A DNA stretch of 63,202 bases, counting the filler. It is 7 parts of 7 records of this genome, joined end to end, with 100 filler letters (N's around TTAATTAATTAA, not from the genome) between each part and the next. Parts side by side here need not be neighbours in the genome. Positions count along the whole stretch, not along the records: positions 1 to 13,569 come from SRR31147125_13505; 6 more parts are not named here. One strand, written 5' to 3'. Shown piece after piece: positions 1-13,669 of this stretch. The translations under genes were made by a program, and so were the position numbers. Under the pieces are notes generated by a model that worked only from the letters and a program-made list of their open reading frames with translations, was not told where the DNA came from and ran no database searches. How positions within the stretch are numbered: the first letter of the stretch is position 1; the number at the start of each line of letters is the position of its first letter.

Positions 1-1
1 G

Positions 2-677
2 GACGCCATAGACACCAGGATTGCTTATAATGAAAAAGACATCGTCCTCATTGATACAGCTGGATTACGAAGAAAAGCCAGGGTAAAAGAAAATATCGAA
101 TATTTTAGTAATATAAGAACGATGAATGCTCTCAGAAGGTGCGACGTTGCCATTATTTTTCTGGATGCTGTCGAGGGCATTACGGATCAGGACAAAAAAA
201 TCATCTCAAGTACTGTGAGTGAAGGAAAGGGCATTGTTCTTGGTGTGAACAAGTGGGACCTTATTGAAAAGGATACCATGACAGCGCGAAAATTTGAACT
301 GGATATTCAGGAAGCCATCGCGAATATGTCATATATTCCTATTATGTTTATATCTGCTTTAGTCAAGCAACGAATATTTCGTTTACTTGATCTTGCCATT
401 TCTGTTTATAAAGAACGTCAACGCATAATAAAAACGGCCGAGTTGAATCAATTACTCAGATTAGCTGTGTCCAGAAATCAACCCCCTTCATATGGCAGTA
501 AACATGTGAAAATTAATTACGTGACTCAGGCTCGTGCAGAACCTCCAACCTTTGTTTTTTACAAACGAGCCAAAAGGGATAAAAAAGAATTATAGAAATT
601 ATCTGGAAAATCAGATTCGTAAGCAATATGGTTTTTTGGGCGTGCCAATCAGAATGAGTTTTCGTCAAAAGAATTAG
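2..677 (+). CDS. der: Ribosome biogenesis GTPase Der/EngA, C-terminal part (5' truncated; frameshift at ~560)
   Basis: Frame from base 2 reads DAIDT...DTAGLRRK (G3) and NKWD (G4) of the second G domain. After the T-run at 551-560 the KH-like tail continues in another frame: TNEPKGIKKNYRNYLENQIRKQYGFLGVPIRMSFRQKN*, stop 675-677. Confidence 0.93.
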
Positions 678-718
678 GCTTACTCATATTCATTTGTTAT
701 CAGGAGAAAACCAGTCAG

Positions 719-2500
719 TTGATTTATTACAAACCTTTTGCTGTTTTAATATCAAAAGCCATTTATATATGTGTTATTGTGATTCTCTTGCTGGGAGGTA
801 AAGGAAACGGAAAGACACAAAAGACGCTTCAGCATGTTTTGCAGGAAGAATTGGGTCAGAATAAAATTACCGAGGCTGAGGCTATAACTTATAAGCTTAT
901 GGCGATTCAAAATTCTGATTTACTGCCAGACTTTTATAAAGAGCTTGAATCACCGTTAATGAGATCAGGAACAACGCTTAGATTTAAAGCAAAAGCAATG
1001 TTGCCCAAATTGGCCGGGCAGGATAAAAAGAATTTGATATCGTTACTTTTACGTCCCTCCAGAGAAAAACTGCCGGAAGAATTGATTAGCCCTAAAGGTT
1101 ATTTTAAAATTCATTATGCAACTGAAGGGAGGGATGCGGCTACAATGGACTACATCGAGGAAACAGCCAGAACCTTTGATGCTGTTTACGAATTTGAGGT
1201 AAATAACCTGGGGTTCGCACGTCCGCCTGATGATTACGATGTTGATGGTCCTGAATATGACGTTTATGTTCTTAATATTTATGAATATGGCTATACAACT
1301 GCTGACAGACCGGTTGTTGAAACATCTCATGATGATTACACAAGCTGGATTGAAATTGACAATGATTTTACCCACACTCCAACCACAGGTTTGGATGCAA
1401 TGAGGGTAACCGCTGCACATGAGTTTTTTCACATGATCCAAATTGGTTATCGATCCTATACAGAGACCATCCTGAACGCCATTTTTCTTTTCGAGTCCAC
1501 TGCCACATGGATGGAGGATGTTGTATTCGATAACGTTAATGATTATTACAATTATTTGACAAAATTATTTTTACCAAATAAAGATTCAAATATATCCTTT
1601 TCGACTGAAAATGGGGAGCATGAATATGGGCTGTCGCTGTATCACCATATGCTCGATAAAAAGTATGGACATCAGGTCATAAGGCGAATGTGGGAGATTT
1701 TTAAATTCAAAGAAGTTTATGAAGCTATGGATGCTGCTTTAATAGAGTATGACAGTAATTTTTCAACAGAATTGGTGGAATTCAATATATGGAATGTTTT
1801 TACGGGGGAAAGAGCGGATACCGTTCTATTTTATAACGAGGGCGTTCATTATCCCATGCTGGAACCGATAGAGATATTTACTTTTGAAGATTTAATATCG
1901 TTTGATGGGGAGATGGGAGAGCTTGCCAGCCATCCTTACAAACTAGTTCCTAAAATTTCCAGTGATTTTTCGATTCAACCAACCCTGGATGAACCTTTTG
2001 CCTGGTCTTATGGTATTGTTACCAGATCTGGGGCTGGGGATAATGATTATTTCGTTTGTAATGGTGACTATGCAAAGAATCTACCCCATATAAAGGCAAA
2101 CTCTGAAATATGGCTCCTTCCGACAAACACCACTATTCCGCAAACAAATAACAGCTTTAATAAATTAAACTTCAAGTTTGATATCAAAAAGGGCAAAACT
2201 GCTAATTTGGCTTCCAGTATTATGCTTGTTGCACCTAATCCTTTTGTACCCTTGCAGCATAATCAAATTCAAATTAAATTTAACAGTGACAAATCAGCTG
2301 CAAAAGCTGATTTAATTATTGTGACTGAGAGTGGCAAAGCCATCAGAAAAATATCACACGGATCCATAACTGATGGATTGAATATGATATCATGGGACGG
2401 GCGAGATGAAGATGGAGAAATCATGCCATCCGGAATCTATTTATTTTATATTGAATCAGATGAGATCATCGGTCCTGGCAAATTGGCACTCATTAACTAG
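719..2500 (+). CDS. Secreted zinc metallopeptidase (MXAN_6640-like) with C-terminal FlgD-Ig-like domain
   Basis: N-terminal hydrophobic segment; VTAAHEFFHMIQ (HExxH) followed by ESTATWMED; C-terminal PNPF...WDGRDEDGEIMPSGIY motif typical of FlgD-Ig/FCB secretion tails. Confidence 0.75.
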   Translation: MIYYKPFAVLISKAIYICVIVILLLGGKGNGKTQKTLQHVLQEELGQNKITEAEAITYKLMAIQNSDLLPDFYKELESPLMRSGTTLRFKAKAMLPKLAGQDKKNLISLLLRPSREKLPEELISPKGYFKIHYATEGRDAATMDYIEETARTFDAVYEFEVNNLGFARPPDDYDVDGPEYDVYVLNIYEYGYTTADRPVVETSHDDYTSWIEIDNDFTHTPTTGLDAMRVTAAHEFFHMIQIGYRSYTETILNAIFLFESTATWMEDVVFDNVNDYYNYLTKLFLPNKDSNISFSTENGEHEYGLSLYHHMLDKKYGHQVIRRMWEIFKFKEVYEAMDAALIEYDSNFSTELVEFNIWNVFTGERADTVLFYNEGVHYPMLEPIEIFTFEDLISFDGEMGELASHPYKLVPKISSDFSIQPTLDEPFAWSYGIVTRSGAGDNDYFVCNGDYAKNLPHIKANSEIWLLPTNTTIPQTNNSFNKLNFKFDIKKGKTANLASSIMLVAPNPFVPLQHNQIQIKFNSDKSAAKADLIIVTESGKAIRKISHGSITDGLNMISWDGRDEDGEIMPSGIYLFYIESDEIIGPGKLALIN

Positions 2501-2580
2501 GGACTGGATGATCTTTAAAGTGTGGCAAATATGTCACACAATGTTGAGCTAATTTTAAAAGTGTTAAATAATTGAACAAA

Positions 2581-2615
2581 AAGCGCTTGACAAAGCGCTT
2601 TTTTATTTTTATCTT
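2581..2615 (+). promoter_or_regulatory. Sigma70-type promoter whose -35 is overlapped and flanked by two AAGCGCTT palindromes
   Basis: TTGACA (2587-2592), 17-nt spacer, TATCTT (2610-2615); AAGCGCTT at 2581-2588 and 2593-2600. Confidence 0.55.
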
Positions 2616-2974
2616 GCATGTAATAAAAGGATAGTTTTAGTAAAAATTATTTAATTCTCATTTTAAAATTATATTATTTGTATCCATGAATTGAGAATCT
2701 GTATATTATTTTTTTATGGCTAATTAATCAGGAAAAGACGATTCATAATTGGTCTATTTCGAGACTGTGTTTTTAATGAATACAAAATTGAAATTGGATT
2801 GAATCCTTATCTGTTATATTACTGTTTTGTTTTAATTCGAATATACACGGATGCATATTAAAAGCAGTTTATTATTGATTTAAGGCTATTAATTATAAAA
2901 GTTTAGATTGTTGTTTTTTTTGTCTGGATTTAATATTATTGGATATATTAAATTTATACAAATTTTTAGGTAAT

Positions 2975-2990
2975 TTGGCATAGTGATTGC
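2975..2990 (+). promoter_or_regulatory. Sigma54 (-24/-12) promoter
   Basis: TTGGCATAGTGATTGC = GG-N10-GC, close to the TGGCAC-N5-TTGC consensus, about 50 nt upstream of the ATG at 3042. Confidence 0.7.
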
Positions 2991-3041
2991 CATTGTTGTG
3001 ATGACAAAAATAATAATGTTGTGAGAATTTGAGCGTTTATA

Positions 3042-3566
3042 ATGGAAGAATTTTATTATTTTACAACAATTGATGTTCTGATCAGGACAGAATATGCGGC
3101 AGATGCAAACTCATTACGCTATGTCACACATTGTTCGATTACTGCTGAAGAGAGACAAACAATTGAACGATATATCCTTACTAAAGTAGGACCTAAAACG
3201 AATTATTATAAACACTCTCCATCTGTACTCATATATAGAGGGATTGATACGAAACTCGAAAAAGAGTTGAAATTCTACCGACTACAGGAATCTATTAAAG
3301 ATTTGCTCAATCAAAAATCCTTTATAGACGAAAAAGTAGAAGAATGTATCAATGATTCCCTGAGTGCTTATTATTTCGAGCGAGTAGGAGACGAACTTTT
3401 AAGGCTTCGAAAGATGTTATCAACAAACACGTGTGATAATCATCATGTTGAAAAATGTATTAACCGTATTAGCATTTTATTGGAGGCTTATAATCAAAGA
3501 TCGGGGGAGAATTTTTCAATGGATGCTATTTTACCGGAAGAATATCTCGGAAGTTATCATTATTAG
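3042..3566 (+). CDS. Hypothetical cytoplasmic protein (174 aa)
   Basis: Open ORF with protein-like composition directly downstream of the sigma54 motif; no motif recognised. Confidence 0.65.
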   Translation: MEEFYYFTTIDVLIRTEYAADANSLRYVTHCSITAEERQTIERYILTKVGPKTNYYKHSPSVLIYRGIDTKLEKELKFYRLQESIKDLLNQKSFIDEKVEECINDSLSAYYFERVGDELLRLRKMLSTNTCDNHHVEKCINRISILLEAYNQRSGENFSMDAILPEEYLGSYHY

Positions 3567-3679
3567 GTTGAACTTTATTTACAATAGTGCTTTTTATATT
3601 ATAAACGTCAATAATCAACTGTTTTCAAAACTAATTAATAATAGTATAGATTAGCCTTTTAAAAGGGGAGAACTTTAGG

Positions 3680-5023
3680 ATGGGTGTAATTAAAACTACT
3701 ACAAGCATTTTTCTCATTTGTTTTCTTCTCGTGAGCTCTGTAGTTGCACAAGAGTCGGACAATTCTTCGAATTTTGCTATTGGAATGAATCTGGGTCTAC
3801 AGAAACCATTTTGTGATGTCTTACATACTGGTGCCGGCCTTGCAGGTGAATTTATGGTGAAATTTCTTCTGAACGATCGTTTTAATCTTTCAGGAGCTCT
3901 TGGGTATGGAATACTTAATGATGGGTTTAGTAATAATACCTTTGAGACTAATCTTATCACTGGTGATCTAAAAGCGAATATCAATCTACTCGCTCCCGGA
4001 AAATTTAATCCTTATGTATTTGCTGGAGTTGGTCTCTTTAGTTTCTCTTATGATCGTACTTCGCCCGGTGCGATTGGTAGTCCAGCGCTTGTAGGTGAGC
4101 GATACTTTGATGGATCCTTTCTTTTTGGCGGTGGCGCTGAATATATGGTCTCACCAAAGATAGCTATTAATGCCTTTGCTGATTATCGTCATACAACCGG
4201 AGATGACCTGGATGGAGCAGCTATTGGCAGCAGCAAAGATGGTTATTTAAATGCACGTTTGGGTTTTACGTATTACATGGGTGAACGTTCTCTCGATTCT
4301 ATGCCAGAAGATGAGGATTTATTGGCACTTGAAAGAATCGAATCAGAAGAATTGGATGAGACATTACTTTTTGGAGAGGATGAATTTTCTGCCGACGGTG
4401 ATGACAAACTTGCCATGTTTGAAGCGAAATTAGACAAACTTGATGCTTCTGAGACGGAAATGTCTATGGAACAATATGTGCGTCTTAAATCCAGAATTGA
4501 TGAATTATCTGGTTTAATTGAGAATAAAGAACAGGAACTTGAAGAACTGCGCACTTCATTGGATTTTAAAGATCAGCGTATCGTTAATCTTGAAAAAGAA
4601 TTACAGCATACTTCGGGTGGATATGTACCATCGACATCTGCACCTGTTTATGACAATTTTACTTCTGCTTATGAAAATGCATTAAGAAGTTATTATGCTA
4701 GAGATTATCAGACAGCTATAAATAATTTCACGAATTTGAAAAATTCATTCCCACATCACAAATTATCCAGTAACTGTCAATATTGGATTGGTGAATGTTA
4801 TTTTGGATTAGCGGATTATTTCAGAGCAGCAGAGGCTTTCCAGTCTGTGTTTGACTTTGGTTTGTCCTATAAAAAGGATGATGCCACGTTGATGTTAGGT
4901 CGCTGCTATTACAATTTGCAGGACTTGAGTCGCGCTAAAAGTTACTTCCAGGGGCTCATAAACGAATATCCGGATAGTGAATATATTGAAAAAGCACAAC
5001 AATGGCTATCCCGGATTAGCTAA
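3680..5023 (+). CDS. OmpA-type beta-barrel + acidic linker/coiled coil + CpoB(YbgF)-like TPR fusion protein
   Basis: Signal peptide; OmpA-like strands (FNPYVFAGVGLF, GGGAEY, LNARLGFTYY); heptad coiled coil; YbgF-type TPR (YQTAINNF...NCQYWIGECYF...KKDDATLMLG...LINEYPDS). Confidence 0.72.
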   Translation: MGVIKTTTSIFLICFLLVSSVVAQESDNSSNFAIGMNLGLQKPFCDVLHTGAGLAGEFMVKFLLNDRFNLSGALGYGILNDGFSNNTFETNLITGDLKANINLLAPGKFNPYVFAGVGLFSFSYDRTSPGAIGSPALVGERYFDGSFLFGGGAEYMVSPKIAINAFADYRHTTGDDLDGAAIGSSKDGYLNARLGFTYYMGERSLDSMPEDEDLLALERIESEELDETLLFGEDEFSADGDDKLAMFEAKLDKLDASETEMSMEQYVRLKSRIDELSGLIENKEQELEELRTSLDFKDQRIVNLEKELQHTSGGYVPSTSAPVYDNFTSAYENALRSYYARDYQTAINNFTNLKNSFPHHKLSSNCQYWIGECYFGLADYFRAAEAFQSVFDFGLSYKKDDATLMLGRCYYNLQDLSRAKSYFQGLINEYPDSEYIEKAQQWLSRIS

Positions 5024-5094
5024 TATTACAGGCAGGACCTTGTATTCAGGGTAACTTTGAAATAATGTAATAGCAAACTGTCAATATTATTTAT

Positions 5095-5140
5095 AACCAT
5101 AAAAAAAGGCTGTCTTATTAGACAGCCTTTTTTTATGGTT
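5095..5140. terminator. Bidirectional intrinsic terminator
   Basis: AACCATAAAAAAAGGCTGTCT-TATT-AGACAGCCTTTTTTTATGGTT hairpin with U-tracts on both strands, between convergent genes. Confidence 0.85.
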
Positions 5141-5224
5141 TTTAAATATTTTTGGTGTTGCAACACAGAAGCTGATTCAGTAGTAATCCACTTTTGAGAT
5201 GTATAACAAATCTTAACAAATTTA

Positions 5225-7342
5225 TCATTTTGTTTTAAAATCATAAACCCCATCCCAGTTAACTGGCGGGGAATTTTCTACAAAATCAAGGCATCTGACT
5301 GTATATACTTTGGATGGACCGTCAGTCGGATAATAGCGTAAAACTTTGCGAAATTTCACCAAAGCCTCAGACCATCTTCTTTCTCTATAAGCATTCAATC
5401 CTTCTGTATATACGTCAATCAGGTAATCCTGCTCATTTTGTTGTATACTGTCCATACCTAGTAGTTCAAATATTCGTATGGGATGTGATTTTCCGACAAC
5501 CCGGACGAAATCCAATTCTCGAACTTTGGCCCGTGCTTTTACAAGCTCATACGTGCTTTCACTTAATATGACAGTTGTCTGGTACTCTTTATTAGCACTT
5601 TCAAGTCGTGCACCAATATTAACATGATCCCCAATAACTGTATAGTCAAACAATTGACTGGAACCCAAATTACCTACAATCACTTTTCCAGTATTAATAC
5701 CAATGCCAACATTAAAAGAATCTTTACCGTTTTGTGATGCCCATTTTTCTTTTAATTCTTTGAGTTTGGCCTGCATTTGTAATGCCGTAATACATGCTCT
5801 TTCCGCATGATCTTCAAAAAAATAGGGCGCACCAAACAAGGCCATTATTTCATCACCCACAAATTTATCCAGCGTACCACTATGTTTGAAAATAACCTCA
5901 ACCATTTCTGTCAGATATTCGGAAAGTCGGGAGACCACTTCTTCAGGTTCATGCGATTCTGAAAAGGAAGTGAATTTGCGGATGTCCGAAAAAAGAATTG
6001 TTAACGTCCTTCGTTCGCCACCATAAGATGGAACTTCACCGGTGCTCAACATTTTTTCTACCACAGCCGGAGATACATATTGCTGGAATGTTTTACGAAT
6101 ACGATTTTTTTCTCTGCGCTCTATAAATGCCTGGTACACCAGTCCAATAATAAATGAAAACATGATTCCAAGGGTGGGTGTCGTTGTTGTACAAACTATA
6201 TTATAATGAGAAAATAATATATATATTAGTGCAAACACGGATACAATTTCTGTAGAAATAGTCAGGAGTGCAATCCAGGGCCGAAGTTTAAGAGTAAAAA
6301 GTATCGCAAGTACAACTAGTAAAAGTGTAAATAAAATATGCAGCCTTGAATCTAAATATTTTATAAAGTCACCTTTGATAATTGTGCTAAGAGCATTTGC
6401 ATGCATCTCTACACCAGGTATTTTTTGTTTTTGTCCGCCATAATTGAAAAAGGGGGTATATTTATTGTCCTGTAATTCATCCGCAGTAGCCCCTACAAAT
6501 ACAATCTTGTCTTTAAATGTACCCCATTCCAGATGTAAATCAAATATATCCGTGTCTTCATCGGCTTTTAGGCTAAAAGTCGAATCATCAAGAACACTTG
6601 CAAGAGAATATGTACGAAATGTTTGTGACGGACCCCGATAATTAATTAGCATAGAATTGGGTGTTACTTTGGGTATGATTTTATCCCCAACCTGGAATGT
6701 TGGAGAATAAGGATCCTGTTCCTGGGAAGGTTCGCTTTTTTCCAGCGTCTTTATGGCCTCAATCGCTAGAGGATAATAGTTTTTATTATTGACAGTTTGA
6801 AAGAGGAGATAACGGCGAAGAAAACCATCTTCATCTTCAAGTATATTAACCAATCCCCAATTGGCGAAACTTCTGAGCAAGGGGGCAATCGGTTTTACAA
6901 CATATGTATTTTGTGTACTGGAACTACCTACTTCATACACGATTTTACCTGCAAGTACGACGTTCCTGGCATCGGTTACAGCGCGGGCAAAAAATAAATC
7001 AAACTCTGGATCCTTGGTATTCTCTTCAATGAATTCAATATCAAATACAATTAATTTTGCTTCCGCTTTGACTAAATTATTGACTAATTTTGCATAAAAG
7101 CTGGTTGGATAAGGATATTTAATCGGCATACTTTCCATTGTCATATCATCAATAGCGACAATTACAATGGATGTGTCAGCAGGTGACAATGGACCGCGCA
7201 GATTAAACAAGCTATCGATAGATTTGTGCTGCAGGTTTTGCACAATTGGCAGAGAAGAAATAATAAAAGCTAATACGATGGAAACAAAAATAATCGAAAT
7301 CTTGATTGCGAGTTTGGAACTTTTGAAATTATTAAAGGTCAT
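5225..7342 (-). CDS. CHASE2-domain class III adenylate/guanylate cyclase
   Basis: CHASE2 motifs (IVIVAIDD, FDIEF, DEDGFLRR, KIVFVGATA, PGVEMHA), three TM helices, cyclase motifs LFSDIRKFT, DKFVGDEIMA, DYTVIGDHVNIGARLE (Lys/Asp pair suggests ATP specificity), C-terminal TPR-like tail. Confidence 0.92.
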   Translation of the reverse strand: MTFNNFKSSKLAIKISIIFVSIVLAFIISSLPIVQNLQHKSIDSLFNLRGPLSPADTSIVIVAIDDMTMESMPIKYPYPTSFYAKLVNNLVKAEAKLIVFDIEFIEENTKDPEFDLFFARAVTDARNVVLAGKIVYEVGSSSTQNTYVVKPIAPLLRSFANWGLVNILEDEDGFLRRYLLFQTVNNKNYYPLAIEAIKTLEKSEPSQEQDPYSPTFQVGDKIIPKVTPNSMLINYRGPSQTFRTYSLASVLDDSTFSLKADEDTDIFDLHLEWGTFKDKIVFVGATADELQDNKYTPFFNYGGQKQKIPGVEMHANALSTIIKGDFIKYLDSRLHILFTLLLVVLAILFTLKLRPWIALLTISTEIVSVFALIYILFSHYNIVCTTTTPTLGIMFSFIIGLVYQAFIERREKNRIRKTFQQYVSPAVVEKMLSTGEVPSYGGERRTLTILFSDIRKFTSFSESHEPEEVVSRLSEYLTEMVEVIFKHSGTLDKFVGDEIMALFGAPYFFEDHAERACITALQMQAKLKELKEKWASQNGKDSFNVGIGINTGKVIVGNLGSSQLFDYTVIGDHVNIGARLESANKEYQTTVILSESTYELVKARAKVRELDFVRVVGKSHPIRIFELLGMDSIQQNEQDYLIDVYTEGLNAYRERRWSEALVKFRKVLRYYPTDGPSKVYTVRCLDFVENSPPVNWDGVYDFKTK

Positions 7343-7380
7343 TTTTATTTTGGAATTGTGAGTGAGTTAGAGTGATTTTA

Positions 7381-9879
7381 TTATAAGTAATAGTCATATC
7401 GTAGCCGAAAAATTGTGTCTGTATAGGATATCTTGGTGCTCTTGTCATCAAGAGATAAAATATTCGCGTCCAGGGAGATTGTGTGCCGTGGCTGAATTTG
7501 AAATAAAGCTCCCAACCGGAAATGATTGCGTGTATAGTCGATAACCGTTCCAAAGCTCGATGTACCTGTGGCATTTGTAAATCTCATCTCACCAAATGTT
7601 GAAAATCGATTTTCCCAGAAAGAATAATTTGCACCAAATCCAAACATATCATACTTGAAATCAGATTGACCTCCTGAAATCATGTTTTTATTGTAAGCAT
7701 AACTAACGGTTGTTTGTAAAGGAATATTGTATTTTGTTTTAAGGGTAAATAAACGGATATCCGAAGAATTTTCATTTATCGTTCGATTATAATTATCCAT
7801 TCTGTCTGCTGTTATATAATTAAAACTCAGCGTATGCATTAACTGGAATAGCTGAATATCATAACCAACCTGGACAGAAATATCTCTGGTTAACTGATCC
7901 TCTCTGAGATCTCTTTCCAGTGTATCCAGAGTTGTGGAACTTGTGTAATAAATCTCCTGCTCAATATCTTCCTCATCATTGTCTCTGTAATGATTACGCA
8001 CACTTATATTGACATTTGGCAAACCATTTCCGGGATAATAGGAAATAGCATAGTTTAGTGTTTTTAGGGATAATTCAGGATCTGTGCTGCTCTTAGAAAA
8101 GTGATCTGTATAATCCTCATAACCAAGAGTTAAATATAATTTGTTTTGTAACAGTCGCATTCGGTCTGAAAAGTAAAATCCTTTTATATCTTTACGAATC
8201 CAGTAGTTAGCCAGAGAAAAATACTCTGAGCCAATAGACTTGTAACCGACTCGTAACATATTACGGAAATAATTCAGTTTGAGGCTTATATTGTGCGCAA
8301 CAGAGGTTAATTCAGTTGGATCTAAAGGGGTCGTGCTATCATTAATGATAAGCCATTTTTCAAAGTCACCAGGATTAAAGGGAATATCCACCTCTTCACC
8401 AACAACCTCTTCAATATCCTCCTTGTCTAAAGGACCGTGAGTAATATTATTTGTTAGAAAACTTATTGCACTTGTCGCTTTAATGACAAATCGTCCGCGG
8501 TCGAAAGATAATTTGAGATCCGGACCGAAAACCAGATTATCTTTAGGATTGGAGGAGAATTTTATAGAATTCTTATCATCTTTTGTTTTGACGAGACTAA
8601 AACCCAGTTGAAATTTTTTTCCACTGCCAAAACTTGGACGAATGCCAAAAATGTTTTGTTCATAGGTGCCATAGCGTGAGATAGATGTTTGTAACGAATC
8701 AGTTCCAAGATTTGTTTTAAGGGTATCTCCCATAAAGGTTACAGGCGAGGTTTTTACAGCGCCTTCTATACCACGATATGTTTGTCCAAAAACGACGTCC
8801 ACATTAAAAAAGCCCAAGTGAACATAACCAGATAAACCGCGTACACGTTTGCCCCACAAGATCAAATCATTAAAGTATGGATTTGTATCTCCAGCTTCGA
8901 TGCCGACATATTTTGTCTGGACCCCAAATTTGAAACGGTTCCGGGGTTGATAACTGTTATCCTCCAGAGAGGTGATAAACATGCGTCCATTATATCGAAT
9001 GCCACCGTATTCTCCGTTGAAATCGGCTCCGCCCATTGCAAATGATTCATTTTCTTCGCTGATTTGTTCTTGCCTGAGGTCAGAAAAAATATGGCCTCGA
9101 AATTGAGAGGGCCCGCGTTGCTTTTCTTTTTTACTCATCACTGTAAATGAAAATTCAACAGGAGGGAGGGGATTTCCTTCCATATCCTGAGCTGTTACTT
9201 TTAAGCGATGGCGCCCGGATCTGACCAAACGAGGCGATAGAGTGAGCAAATAGGATGAAATAGTCGCCTTTGAAGTAATATTTATTCCATCCAGGTAAAG
9301 TCTAACTGAGGAAGAATCCACCTGAATCTCCCGGCTGTTAAAAGAAACAGCGAAAACAACTTCGTCTTCCTTCAGGGCTTCATTGGGCTCTGGTGACAAG
9401 ACCATCAATGCGGCACTTTCATCCAAAAACGTTTCCGTCAGGATATCTTCAGTTTTATCCGTAACAGAGGTTTGTTCAGGTGGGGTGGCTAAGATGGTAA
9501 TGTCCTCGGGTTCATTGTATGGATTTATTGCCGGATAAGAAATAATGGTCTCATTGAGTAGAAAAGCAGATAAAAAATATTGTAAACGATCCCCATAAAC
9601 TTCAGAGGCGGGAATGGTACCGACCCACTGATCAACGTCCGGATTCATCTCTTCATAACGAAAAGATTCCTGTTCATTATGTCTATAATAAATGCGTATA
9701 TATCCCGCTCTTGTGAAAGCACCCTCTATTTTTACCGACATTGAAATTTCCTGACCCTCATAGGCTGTCGTAACAGGAAAATGGACGAGCCTTTCCTGCG
9801 CATATAAATCAGAGTGAAGGGATGCCAGAACGAGCAGGATAATAATCACGCTCACTGTGCTTAACGTTGTTTTTTTCAT
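7381..9879 (-). CDS. Putative outer-membrane beta-barrel protein with N-terminal Ig-like domains (832 aa)
   Basis: Signal peptide; beta-sandwich-like N-terminus (YIRIYYR...WVGTIPA...LQYFL; LYLDG...GRHRLKVTAQD); C-terminal ~570 aa of alternating amphipathic strands ending RLRYDYYL (beta-signal-like). Confidence 0.65.
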   Translation of the reverse strand: MKKTTLSTVSVIIILLVLASLHSDLYAQERLVHFPVTTAYEGQEISMSVKIEGAFTRAGYIRIYYRHNEQESFRYEEMNPDVDQWVGTIPASEVYGDRLQYFLSAFLLNETIISYPAINPYNEPEDITILATPPEQTSVTDKTEDILTETFLDESAALMVLSPEPNEALKEDEVVFAVSFNSREIQVDSSSVRLYLDGINITSKATISSYLLTLSPRLVRSGRHRLKVTAQDMEGNPLPPVEFSFTVMSKKEKQRGPSQFRGHIFSDLRQEQISEENESFAMGGADFNGEYGGIRYNGRMFITSLEDNSYQPRNRFKFGVQTKYVGIEAGDTNPYFNDLILWGKRVRGLSGYVHLGFFNVDVVFGQTYRGIEGAVKTSPVTFMGDTLKTNLGTDSLQTSISRYGTYEQNIFGIRPSFGSGKKFQLGFSLVKTKDDKNSIKFSSNPKDNLVFGPDLKLSFDRGRFVIKATSAISFLTNNITHGPLDKEDIEEVVGEEVDIPFNPGDFEKWLIINDSTTPLDPTELTSVAHNISLKLNYFRNMLRVGYKSIGSEYFSLANYWIRKDIKGFYFSDRMRLLQNKLYLTLGYEDYTDHFSKSSTDPELSLKTLNYAISYYPGNGLPNVNISVRNHYRDNDEEDIEQEIYYTSSTTLDTLERDLREDQLTRDISVQVGYDIQLFQLMHTLSFNYITADRMDNYNRTINENSSDIRLFTLKTKYNIPLQTTVSYAYNKNMISGGQSDFKYDMFGFGANYSFWENRFSTFGEMRFTNATGTSSFGTVIDYTRNHFRLGALFQIQPRHTISLDANILSLDDKSTKISYTDTIFRLRYDYYL

Positions 9880-9903
9880 ACTGCAAAAGTCTCCTAAAAG
9901 AGA

Positions 9904-10592
9904 TTATTGCTTTTCATAATCAATGTTTAGTCGTTTTTTTACACTGCCTGATTCGTCTTCAAATTCGATCTGAATATTTCCGGTCCCATCTCCTGAATCC
10001 GCCCAATCATCCAAGTTTTCTGTTTTTGTTAATGTGGGTTTGCCATCTTTAGGAAGAGTGCCTGTCTGTCCTTTACCGACAAGAACCTGACCATATTTAT
10101 TAAACAGGGCTACAATACCATCGACACCAATGATGGTTGTGTTTCCATTGGAGTCAACCAGAGAATAAAATTCTGTTCCCCTGACAGCTGCAACTCCTGA
10201 AGGTGTTTCCAGGCTGAAACCAGCTCCCTGTGGATTGATTTTAGCCCAGAACTGGCCAAAATTCATCCGCAATTTCTTGATAATCCCGGCCTTTTTCTTT
10301 CACCTCTAAAGGTCACCTCTGAATCGGACCGAATTTTCATCATACTGCGGTCGTCGGTAAAAATAACCGAAACAATGGATTCGTTTCCAGTCTTGACCTG
10401 ATCTCCGCTATTAAGATGCCGCCCTTTTTTTAATTTGTTCCAGTTTCTACGACCGGATTTATGCTGTGCGTCACCACTCACCTTTAATACGATAGCAATA
10501 TCCTTTGAAGAAGCTGATTGACTGTCAGAATGAAGACCAAGACAAATCAGGCAAATCAGGATAATATAGCTAGTATATTTTAAATGATCCAT
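9904..10592 (-). CDS. FecR-domain periplasmic protein (one gene split by a frameshift at ~10290-10300)
   Basis: ORF 10263-10592 has a signal peptide and LNSGDQVKTG...FTDDRSMMKI; ORF 9904-10272 continues LETPSGVAAVRGTEF. The frames join at the A-rich run, giving ...GIIKKLRMNFGQ. Confidence 0.82.
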
Positions 10593-10713
10593 AATTGGAT
10601 TCCTTATAAAATGTTCTTATTCGGATTAGTTCGGTAAAAAATGAAATAATAAAATTTATTTTGTTATATTCCTGATAGTACGTGACTGTATCAAAATAAT
10701 AACAAATAGATTG

Positions 10714-11853
10714 TTAATCGATTGCCTCTATTTCATTTGTAATCTGTAATTCACCATTTTGAAATTTCAGAACAAGATCCCGAAATGTATCCAGAGATAT
10801 AGCCTGACCATTTAAATAAAGAACACCAGTGGGTTTGAAATTAAAAAGTTCTCCTCCGCTCTCAAAGAGCGCATCAAACCGATCTCCAAGTAATAGTCTT
10901 AATTGATTAACAATTTGTATCTGCTCAAATGACATGACCCCGCCTTCAAGACTACCGATTTTAAACGCCCAGATCTCACTGGGTAACTCTACCGGAGCGC
11001 CTGAACTTTGTGCAATGCCTGTTATTTGCCAGATATAAGTTCTACCTGGTTGTAATGGAAAGGCTCCTGCAGCAGGATATTGAAAGGCTGTGGTACTAAT
11101 AACATTTTCAGCCAAAACTGCCGGATCTGAACTGACTCTTAGTGTTTTGTCAAAGATGATTCTGTCACTGAGGATTTCTTCAGGGCTCATGTTTTCATGA
11201 ATGCCTGCTAATTTTTCGGCAATAACAAGGCGGAATTCTTCCATATTGGATTCCCAGCGGAAGAATGGCTGTAATGAGAAAATGTGCTGAATCTCTTCCG
11301 TATTTGCATCAGATCCCGGTGAGATCAGATCCAGGGTCGTTGGATTGGTGACATCAATGCTAAATCGTTCTGTACCAATAATATTCGTTTGTTTCGTCAG
11401 GTTGAATTCAAAATCATAAATGTCACTTGGTAATTTCCCTGTCTCAAGTATCTTGTTAATCAGATCTTCACCACCTTGTTCAATGCTATATTCTTCCAGG
11501 GAGAATCTATCGGACTGACTAAACAGGTTTTGATTGGTAATGAGGATATGTTCATTGGGTTTAATTTCGAAAGGATTTGTGCGTCCAAATGCCAGCTCAC
11601 CTTGCGTCCGGCCCACAATACGCATATCCATTATACATGTTTCTGTTTGTGGTGAAAAACTTGTAATTTCAATCTGGAACAGGTCTGTGCCTACAGAGCC
11701 TTTTCCGGTTAGGTTAAAATCATTTAAAAAGAAGACGCTTAAATCAGGATTTGTCAGTGTAACTCTGATGACAATATCTTGTGCGTTCGACGTCGAATAA
11801 ATTAATGTTAAAACAATCCCCTGTATCAACAGAGAAAAAAGACGACGTTTCAT
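10714..11853 (-). CDS. Secreted hypothetical beta-sandwich protein (TANFOR/DUF928-like motifs)
   Basis: Signal peptide ending AQ; TGKLPSDIYDF, LDLISPG, PFFRWES, YPAAGAFPLQPGRTYIWQI, SEIWAFKI. The family resemblance is from recall and has not been searched. Confidence 0.6.
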   Translation of the reverse strand: MKRRLFSLLIQGIVLTLIYSTSNAQDIVIRVTLTNPDLSVFFLNDFNLTGKGSVGTDLFQIEITSFSPQTETCIMDMRIVGRTQGELAFGRTNPFEIKPNEHILITNQNLFSQSDRFSLEEYSIEQGGEDLINKILETGKLPSDIYDFEFNLTKQTNIIGTERFSIDVTNPTTLDLISPGSDANTEEIQHIFSLQPFFRWESNMEEFRLVIAEKLAGIHENMSPEEILSDRIIFDKTLRVSSDPAVLAENVISTTAFQYPAAGAFPLQPGRTYIWQITGIAQSSGAPVELPSEIWAFKIGSLEGGVMSFEQIQIVNQLRLLLGDRFDALFESGGELFNFKPTGVLYLNGQAISLDTFRDLVLKFQNGELQITNEIEAID

Positions 11854-11900
11854 AGGACACTCCTTTCAAAAGAAAGACGACGATATTATAAGTACTTGAT

Positions 11901-11917
11901 GGCAAAAAAAGTGCCAG
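11901..11917 (-). promoter_or_regulatory. Sigma54 (-24/-12) promoter of the 11853->5225 operon
   Basis: Minus strand CTGGCAC-TTTTT-TTGCC is a perfect TGGCAC-N5-TTGC, about 48 nt upstream of the ATG, which has an AAAGGAG RBS. Confidence 0.8.
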
Positions 11918-12001
11918 CATTAACAGGCCATATTGACCGTCTGTTATGCTCAAAATGCAGGATAAATGTATCAAAAGAGGTAATGATTTGTCATTTATTG
12001 G

Positions 12002-12028
12002 TATACTGTCTCACTTGATAACAGTATA
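12002..12028. promoter_or_regulatory. Inverted repeat, candidate enhancer-binding-protein site
   Basis: TATACTGT-N11-ACAGTATA, ~85-110 nt upstream of the -24 box, the usual position for a sigma54 activator site. Confidence 0.4.
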
Positions 12029-12386
12029 ACTATTTAATTTTCATTTGATAAAAAGCTGAATTTTGTCAGTTTCTTATACCAGGTTTAGAGTCACGTATTA
12101 CTATATGTTACAAATTAACTCATTTTTTGGTATAAACCAATCATGTTCCGCTAAATTTTTTGTTCTTTTGTTAATAACAACCAATGAGAGTATAAAACTT
12201 GATAATACCGTTTTTAATTAAAACGGAATTTAATAAAAATAATTCATCATTTTTAATATATGGGTAGGAACCATATTAAAGATCTTTGAAAATGTGCTTA
12301 TTCCCACACAAAATCAAAGATCCTAATGGTGTTAAAAAGTATGCCTTTTAATAATATGCAGTTGATATTATCAGGGGTGATGTTAA

Positions 12387-13569
12387 TTAAAAGTAATACC
12401 AAATTGATCTATAGTCTTGGATATTTTCACCCCGCTGTTCCAATTCTTTGAGATAGTCATAAATAGAAACATCCGTATCAATAAATGAATCTGCAAGAGA
12501 AAGATTTTTTTCCCAGGGGTGAAATTCATATACTCGTCTGCCATCTGGTAATAATGTTAATAAACGATGATGCTGTTGTGCACGGATATAATTTTTCCCT
12601 AATTTTGGAACATTGTAAACCGGTTCGTCAGTACGAAGAAGTCCAGGGATTAGTCTGGCTTCTTCTTTAACCTCCTGCTGCAATCTGGCCAGAGGAACAC
12701 GATATGCCTTGGTTTCTTCCTTACCTTTTGTATTAAAAGTATAATATGGATCAACCCCGATTAAACGCAATTTTTTACGCAATGCGACCAATTCAAACCT
12801 TCTGCTGTTTTCAAGTGTAAAAACAGTTTGATTATAAACAGACATGCCTCGTTTGCGAAATTGCTGAACAGCCTGCATGGACTGTGGTGTTATTTCATAA
12901 GGATGTTCAAAATGTGTCACCAATGCAATTTCACGTTTTCCTGGTACATGATGTTGAGATATTATATTCATCAGGTTATCTGTCAACCTGGACGGTAAAA
13001 CCACCGGTGTTCTCGAACCAATTCGAATTCGTTCAACATGATCTATTTCGGAAATCTTTGACAAAACATAATCAATGCGCTCATCATTCATGACAAGAGG
13101 ATCGCCGCCAGTGACCAGCACTTCGGTGATGGCAGGATGTTCCCTTAACCAATCGATAGCTGTATTTATTTTCTCTTTTGATGCTAATGCCTGTGGAAAC
13201 AAGACATCGTCAATTTCCCAATTGCGTTGGCAATAAACGCATATTTGGCTGCACGTGTTATAAGGTTTAAAGATGACGATGTTAGGGTAGCGTCGTGTAA
13301 TGAGATCGATTGGCGATGTGTCATGTTCCAGCATAAAATCACACGAAATATCGCTTTGTCCTGATTTAGCGAGCATTGCTTCAACGTAACTTAATGGTGG
13401 GATGACCTGGGCTCGGACAGCATGATCATTGCGACGATCAGCTTCAAAATCCATTAATGAGACATAGTATGGGGTTATTCCAAATGGTAATTTTGCTTCT
13501 TTAGCAAGATCAATAGCCTTTTTTTCTTCATCTGATAATTGAACTAGAGATGCAAGCTGAGAGGAATTT
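12387..13569 (-). CDS. KamA-family radical SAM protein (5' truncated at contig edge)
   Basis: CSQICVYC (CxxxCxxC), RRYP, LVTGGDPL, RIRIGSRTP, THFEHP; the frame stays open to the contig edge (LPFGITPYYVSLMD). Confidence 0.88.
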
Positions 13570-13669
13570 NNNNNNNNNNNNNNNNNNNNNNNNNNNNNNN
13601 NNNNNNNNNNNNNTTAATTAATTAANNNNNNNNNNNNNNNNNNNNNNNNNNNNNNNNNNNNNNNNNNNN
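13570..13669. other. Artificial contig-joining spacer
   Basis: 44 N + TTAATTAATTAA (stops in all six frames) + 44 N. Confidence 0.99.

Follow-up and report, generated by a model that had tools for sequence, protein, structure and literature searches.

The window analysed here is a stretch of 63,202 nucleotides (nt) of joined DNA pieces, and its first piece, SRR31147125_13505 at positions 1-13569 (the first run of N starts at 13570), holds the locus under study. This locus is a cassette of four co-oriented minus-strand genes encoding an exported 379-amino-acid (aa) protein (hereafter the head), a FecR-domain protein, an 832-aa predicted outer-membrane barrel protein and a 705-aa CHASE2 cyclase (Table 1). 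The cassette is real and is conserved in KSB1- and Ignavibacteria-type bacteria. Comparison with related loci suggests that head and barrel form a pair of their own, since loci for giant secreted proteins pair the same head and barrel without FecR or cyclase, and that the FecR protein, the Ig domains of the barrel and the cyclase are additions of the signalling copy. The account that we hold to be on balance probable is that the four genes form one envelope-spanning relay, in which the head would sit in the barrel, the FecR protein would bridge to the CHASE2 domain and the output would be cyclic AMP (cAMP). From the homologies described below, it is likely that an undescribed export route has been reused for cell-surface signalling.

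Conservation of the Four-Gene Cassette

Most of the named homologues belong to candidate division KSB1; the distant ones include Marinimicrobia. Scanning species genomes yielded 37 KSB1-type barrel loci, 10 of which are cut on one side. The head and FecR genes lie upstream of the barrel gene in 32/32 loci with upstream DNA, the cyclase gene lies downstream in 32/32 loci with downstream DNA, and all four genes are present in each of the 27 fully covered loci. A barrel match is found in 162 of 167 genomes of the phylum, and at E<=1e-60 in about 116 by hand count. A more distant barrel clade, with one member named Ignavibacteriaceae, was studied in metagenomes, where the best 80 of 113 loci were retained. 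There the FecR gene is upstream in 75 of 75 loci with DNA and the cyclase downstream in 65 of 71; an open reading frame (ORF) of 340-400 aa precedes the FecR gene, and the head profile recognised only some of these ORFs. Together these counts bear out the co-occurrence of the four genes in other genomes, on which the initial annotation of this DNA as a trans-envelope signalling system depends.

One genome, G120, holds a second, divergent four-gene signalling copy (L185, G120:C96, 1404-7176). The cassette is common in KSB1 genomes. Atlas clusters with similar features consist mainly of Fidelibacterota, Bacteroidota and Balneolota, groups that may offer cultured hosts. Correlations of sequence identity among the four genes (0.85-0.95, 24 loci) were not used, as they are expected from shared descent.

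Head and Barrel in Giant-Protein Loci

Weaker barrel matches in KSB1 genomes are paralogues of 550-600 aa that lack Ig domains (HHalign E 4e-47) and share operons with secreted proteins of about 1,100 to 4,200 aa (the giants). Residues 25-304 of the head are homologous to the first 270 residues of these giants (HHalign 99.8%, E 4e-28). We inspected 32 head hits outside signalling loci. In 18 of them a barrel paralogue lies no more than three co-oriented genes away and has neither a FecR nor a CHASE2 hit next to it; 13 of the 18 were found independently and five from the barrel side, these five having seeded the head profile. Head and barrel identities co-vary over a set of 17 of the 18 pairs (Spearman 0.87; 0 of 2000 permutations; G030 was omitted because its barrel is split), a result that is explicable by linkage alone, as expected of any linked genes. 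Additionally, the head tree and the barrel tree each place the two copies tested from genome G106 in separate clades. Giants of 2,800-4,200 aa (L201 725-13456, L187, L188 and L183) have almost no Pfam annotation, and their neighbours include putative-Ig/PKD repeat, FN3 and TPR proteins.

Giant loci carry their own barrel in every uncut case seen, and signalling barrels and heads group apart from giant-type ones except for the G014 second copy. Both observations argue against the idea that the barrel is a working exporter for other TANFOR-like cargo, with the short head as placeholder or chaperone and cAMP reporting pore traffic or assembly rather than an outside ligand. We regard this as decidedly unlikely, although it draws on the homology to the giant-protein loci and on the several genomes that hold both locus types (e.g. 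G052, G075 and G106).

The head model (pLDDT, the predicted local distance difference test, 86) consists of a signal-like N-terminal helix, beta-sandwiches at residues 25-170 and 171-301, and a small C-terminal domain. Fold searches, bearing mainly on residues up to 301, returned only generic Ig/FN3 beta-sandwiches (Z up to 9.4), a PDB sequence search gave weak PKD hits, and Pfam gave no match. The protein has no passenger or toxin domain and no lipobox, and a lipobox occurs in 1 of 74 homologues. A database search with the head profile found 98 longer proteins with varied further domains.

TANFOR is described as the N-terminal domain of large Bacteroidetes proteins, many of which have C-terminal toxin domains (PMC7073777). 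The accessible text of that source offers a type IX export route as a hypothesis only and names no barrel partner among the enriched neighbours (PMC7073777). TANFOR proteins are Sec-exported, with a conserved N-terminal domain followed by FN3 (PMC7073777). This layout of large exported proteins holds for the giant paralogues as well, while the window protein is 379 aa long and has no passenger. The TANFOR family model TIGR02542 matches 4 of 23 long head relatives at E 5e-14 to 7e-5, the best at 52.5 bits against a cut-off of 67. The window protein gives no hit to this model, 4 of its 74 homologues match at E 0.0026-0.1, and none of the proteins in five genomes exceeds the cut-off. We read the 379-aa protein as an apparent cargo-less copy of the TANFOR-like head of secreted giants. 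The initial annotation of a secreted beta-rich protein agrees with the signal-like N-terminus and the beta-sandwich model; the head homology, the giant loci and the co-variation favour a dedicated partner of the barrel over a free accessory.

Besides the five seeded loci and the linkage of the two genes, what weighs against this reading is that 14 of the 32 head hits have no visible barrel (13 of these reach a contig end within two genes and one matches only the second domain), and that the TANFOR match lies below the family cut-off.

The Barrel, FecR and Cyclase Proteins

In the model of the 832-aa protein (pLDDT 84.8), Ig domains at residues 28-130 and 158-248 precede about 26 barrel strands over residues 259-831, a hand count from the secondary-structure list of the model. 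There is no N-terminal plug in the model, nor a plug or TonB-receptor hit in Pfam. The protein thus does model as a barrel with N-terminal Ig domains and without a TonB plug, as had been proposed from the sequence. Pfam returned only sub-threshold OMP_b-brl and Big_7 matches and no TPR hit, and a PDB sequence search found only the Ig domain of peptidylarginine deiminase (residues 28-115, E 3e-4). The best structural match across the whole barrel is MtrB (PDB 6r2q chain B; Z 18.5, root-mean-square deviation 5.1, 482 residues aligned), with other large barrels at Z 16-17. At 11% identity and with no cytochrome partner in the cassette, the match to MtrB shows size and fold, not kinship. MtrB itself is a 26-strand barrel whose lumen accommodates a partner protein. 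The cassette barrel has a conserved insertion at 481-530 (model and alignment), and the last residue is F or Y in 86 of 91 homologues. Its family, with 884 representatives at E<=1e-30, is large and unannotated. Based on the model, we predict that the 832-aa protein is a wide, plug-less outer-membrane barrel.

The FecR domain (PF04773) matches the C-terminal piece of the window gene at E 1e-5 and is above cut-off in 4/4 intact relatives. The protein has a signal-like N-terminus with only about 25-30 residues ahead of the exported part, and Pfam gave no hit to a cytoplasmic anti-sigma part or a transmembrane anchor. Its Gly-Thr motif is GT in 29 of 30 relatives and GS in the remaining one; E. 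coli FecR is reported to cleave itself at Gly-Thr (PMC12036975). A lipobox is present in 0/30 relatives, and the protein ends in a conserved hairpin-like C-terminal tail. DUF7354 (Pfam, E 2e-8) overlaps the N-terminal part of the window FecR protein, which suggests that DUF7354 is a FecR-like fold.

The CHASE2 cyclase of the initial annotation is confirmed by Pfam matches of the 705-aa protein to CHASE2 (E 3e-50) and Guanylate_cyc (PF00211, E 7e-25) and by its catalytic residues. CHASE2 occupies residues 22-345 and a class III cyclase domain residues 446-619; the protein also has four hydrophobic segments and a short TPR-like tail. Class III cyclases use two metal-binding Asp residues, an adenine-selecting Lys together with Asp, Thr or Ser, and a transition-state Asn and Arg, and the combination of Lys and Thr is read as ATP-specific. 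Residues D453, K493, D497, T568, N575 and R579 are invariant in 30/30 full-length copies. With its catalytic set intact, the 705-aa protein is predicted to be an ATP-using, cAMP-making membrane receptor.

Comparison with Known Systems

In Sinorhizobium meliloti, NsrA is required for CyaK signalling (PMC7529298, PMC13001267). By domain search and annotation, NsrA consists of FecR, TPR and barrel parts and is encoded directly upstream of cyaK. The cassette resembles NsrA-CyaK, and also CyaD1/D2, in that a CHASE2 class III cyclase gene adjoins an outer-membrane barrel gene and a FecR domain is on the outer-membrane side. Furthermore, CyaK is 29% identical over 90% of the window cyclase and has the same catalytic set, with Ser for Thr568. 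In contrast to NsrA, where FecR, TPRs and barrel are fused in 1,200 aa, FecR is a separate gene in 30/30 aligned relatives of the cassette, and the barrel has Ig domains and no TPR hit. The barrel-family profile did not match NsrA (probability 0.1%; a comparison of low power, made with a single NsrA sequence), and no TANFOR-like partner is annotated at nsrA. An Azospirillum locus (L039, 5208-9854) has a CHASE2 cyclase gene between a 241-aa hypothetical gene and one for a ShlB/FhaC-type barrel, another secretion pore beside such a cyclase.

With NsrA as a precedent, the barrel alone might act as surface receptor, the role proposed for NsrA itself, while the 379-aa protein would serve FecR or CHASE2 as a soluble accessory in the periplasm, a picture that follows the initial annotation. 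A model for such an accessory is MtxA of magnetotactic bacteria, an exported Ig and TPR protein whose gene precedes that of a CHASE2 cyclase (PMC4439547). The near absence of a lipobox among the head homologues fits this idea, as does the conserved barrel insertion, which at 481-530 could close the lumen in the model. We nevertheless consider it unlikely, since the same head and barrel family occur together in the 18 loci without FecR and cyclase, and the head stays with the barrel in six distant-clade loci without an adjacent cyclase.

Related combinations occur elsewhere. In Campylobacterota, clusters of CHASE2 cyclase, phosphodiesterase, FecR-domain and TPR genes have been proposed to form a single pathway (PMC9239204); the cassette differs in that genes for a TPR protein and a phosphodiesterase are absent, the barrel belongs to another family and the head protein is extra. 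In the BiofilmReg operon of Burkholderiales, an exported FecR-domain protein is encoded directly before a CHASE2 membrane sensor (PMC5192318). It differs from the cassette in its LysM-FecR fusion and its histidine kinase output, and the accessible text describes no barrel (PMC5192318). The signalling principle of FecR plus CHASE2 is thus already known from NsrA-CyaK, Campylobacterota and BiofilmReg.

The cassette shares the Gly-Thr motif of its FecR protein with FecA-FecR-FecI, but has no anti-sigma part, transmembrane anchor, gene for an extracytoplasmic function (ECF) sigma factor or plugged TonB-type receptor. A TonB-dependent receptor has an N-terminal plug and 22 strands, whereas the cassette barrel has two Ig domains and about 26 strands in its model. 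By these comparisons the cassette would work like NsrA-CyaK, yet appears to be neither NsrA, nor a TonB receptor, nor an anti-sigma system.

The initial annotation knew of no description of this combination of genes. Part of it is described: FecR, a CHASE2 cyclase and an outer-membrane protein have been brought together in print (PMC9239204, PMC5498481) and NsrA itself has a FecR domain, while the outer-membrane module is undescribed in the literature found. A literature search, mostly outside subscription papers, found no description of the cassette, the barrel family or the TANFOR-barrel pair.

A Proposed Relay from Outer Membrane to cAMP

We propose that FecR, as an adaptor, and a CHASE2 cyclase have been added to an export pair of barrel and head, such that an event at the outer membrane would change cytoplasmic cAMP. 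The steps follow in order of falling support. First, the 379-aa protein would dock in or on the barrel as the heads of the giants would, serving as a plug substitute or for surface display. Second, the parts that signalling copies have and giant-protein copies lack, namely the FecR protein, the cyclase and the barrel's two Ig domains, would constitute an added periplasmic relay. Third, the FecR protein, held on the outer-membrane side by its C-terminal tail, would contact CHASE2, and a change at the barrel, whether a ligand binds or the head docks or is lost, would shift or release FecR, possibly at the Gly-Thr self-cleavage site. Fourth, the cyclase would use ATP, and the cAMP would be read by proteins encoded elsewhere that bind cyclic nucleotide monophosphates (cNMP). 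Domains for cNMP binding are found in 5/5 carrier genomes tested and also in 10/14 controls. We infer the contacts and the direction of signalling in these steps from gene order, conservation, domain content, catalytic residues and homologies that were observed directly, together with predicted folds.

Several further observations concern the link of the cyclase to its neighbours and tell against the relay. Six of 71 distant-clade loci (L063, L069, L071, L078, L079 and L093) have head, FecR and barrel genes with unrelated genes in the place of the cyclase; from their near-identical flanks, these six are probably one lineage. A second copy in genome G138 (L131, G138:C291, 7068-11710) also lacks the cyclase, and its barrel is shortened to 704 aa. 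KSB1 genomes also hold CHASE2 cyclases without a FecR or barrel neighbour, as well as FecR proteins without a CHASE2 neighbour. In S. meliloti, the FecR-domain gene smc02177 beside cyaD1 is reported to be dispensable for signal perception (PMC5498481), and many cNMP-domain proteins are reported from species without cyclases (PMC9239204). Moreover, the functional support for the relay is indirect, consisting of gene neighbourhood, homology and one model per protein.

Two side observations concern the loci without a cyclase. L063 has a divergent gene set for a GAF kinase, a GAF-SpoIIE phosphatase and a STAS protein upstream of its head, FecR and barrel genes, and in L131 a divergent stand-alone cNMP-binding gene lies beside the cyclase-less copy.

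The six loci, the stand-alone CHASE2 cyclases of the same phylum and the smc02177 result (PMC5498481) would all suit a cyclase that only shares a transcript with an envelope module of three genes and detects a small molecule on its own. This is very improbable in our judgement, as the four-gene order is fixed in two distant clades while the flanks change, and the pairing of FecR with CHASE2 recurs elsewhere although outer partners and outputs there are unrelated (PMC9239204, PMC5192318).

The envelope-spanning relay can be extended to a wider and more tentative proposal, which we hold to be possible rather than probable. The 26-strand barrel and the TANFOR-like head may represent an undescribed two-partner export or anchoring system of Fibrobacteres-Chlorobi-Bacteroidetes (FCB) bacteria and supply the missing route for TANFOR giants. 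The cassette may then be its smallest form, in which a head without cargo sits in the pore, serves as a plug and sensor encoded by its own gene, and is coupled via FecR to a CHASE2 cyclase. If true, CHASE2 domains would read FecR proteins, and secretion pores would have been turned repeatedly into cAMP receptors. Both the sensing target of CHASE2 (PMC5192318) and the export route of TANFOR proteins (PMC7073777) are open in the accessible text of these sources. The cassette would be the smallest object for both questions: its head is 379 aa long, compared with 4,000 aa for a giant, and cAMP can be read out in E. coli cya strains.

Locus Layout, Assembly Error and Regulatory Signals

The intergenic gaps of the cassette measure 121, 24 and 38 nt, in agreement with the close spacing first described, and the absence of an ECF sigma gene adjoining the cassette also stands (ORF list and Pfam of window proteins).

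Table 1. Features of the cassette locus, in positions of the window.
Feature	Position	Strand	Basis
379-aa exported head protein	10714..11853	-	ORF call, model, HHalign
FecR-domain protein, ~229 aa once the error at 10291 is allowed for	9904..10592	-	Pfam, relatives
832-aa predicted outer-membrane barrel protein	7381..9879	-	model, structure search
705-aa CHASE2 cyclase	5225..7342	-	Pfam, catalytic residues
Exact sigma-54 -24/-12 consensus TGGCAC-N5-TTGC	11902..11916	-	motif scan
8-bp perfect inverted repeat with 11-nt spacer; possible activator site (weak)	12002..12028		shuffle test
Hairpin, likely bidirectional terminator	5096..5139		20 pairs, A-run and T-run at the two ends

The FecR domain of the initial annotation is present; a frameshift in its gene had gone unreported. 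In the window the gene spans 689 nt and is split into one ORF of 109 aa and another of 122 aa. One extra T is found behind position 10291 in a contig of run X1, which is possibly the source sample, and in a contig of run X2, which is from another study and represents a relative (contig depth 3.5); run X3 gave no contig at this site. The gene is a single ORF of about 220-240 aa in 30 aligned relatives. Since X1 and X2 both carry the missing base and the ORF is unbroken in the relatives, the break stems from faulty assembly. The presence of the base in the two runs that cover the site, together with a like error at 554 in the Der gene, ruled out a programmed frameshift or a pseudogene. This gene, for the Der (EngA) GTPase, lies at the start of the window and likewise carries a frameshift; X1 has two more T behind 554, which points to homopolymer errors in this piece.

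The initial annotation as a sigma-54 operon is right in that an exact box is present, 48 nt before the first start codon of the cassette. From base composition, about 0.01 exact matches are expected in the 13.6-kb piece, which makes a chance occurrence of the exact box here unlikely; with one mismatch, 3 are seen in the window versus 3.7 expected. The gene rpoN is present in 5/5 related genomes. The box does not appear to be conserved across relatives: of the 32 KSB1-type relatives for which there is upstream DNA, only 6 have an intergenic look-alike, as does 1 of 58 loci of the distant Ignavibacteria-type clade, and the box is absent in L001, L009 and L020, three of the closest relatives. An apparent enrichment (8/29 versus 9/137, Fisher p 0.003) was dropped, as 4 of the 8 boxes lie inside the coding sequence of the upstream gene and 4/29 remain. 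The sigma-54 box is thus plausible at the window locus and would be a local feature at most. The inverted repeat lies about 100 nt upstream of the box; an arm this long was seen in 25 of 300 shuffles, and a similar TGT-N11-ACA, equally far away, is found in one (L006) of the six relatives whose sigma-54 box is intergenic.

The hairpin is located between the cyclase gene and a convergent gene at 3680-5023, and is likely a terminator shared by the two.

Neighbouring Genes and the Remainder of the Window

The convergent gene at 3680-5023 (+) encodes a 447-aa protein in which an OMP beta-barrel domain is combined with an acidic coiled coil and a TPR region like that of CpoB/YbgF, and such an OMP-TPR gene is found beside the cassette in 10/37 KSB1-type loci. 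A sigma-54-like site with one mismatch at 2976-2990 (+) precedes a 174-aa gene of no family at 3042-3566 (+), which travels with the OMP-TPR gene in several relatives. On the same strand, the gene at 719-2500 (+) encodes an MXAN_6640-family HExxH metalloprotease with a C-terminal FlgD-like Ig domain that resembles a type IX sorting tail. Upstream of the cassette, on the same strand, is a radical-SAM gene (12387-13454, -) cut by the end of the piece and placed likewise in 8/37 relatives; we take its product to resemble lysine 2,3-aminomutase. The rest of the window, 13570-63202, consists of six further N-joined pieces with a guanine-plus-cytosine content of about 24-57% per kb, probably from other organisms.

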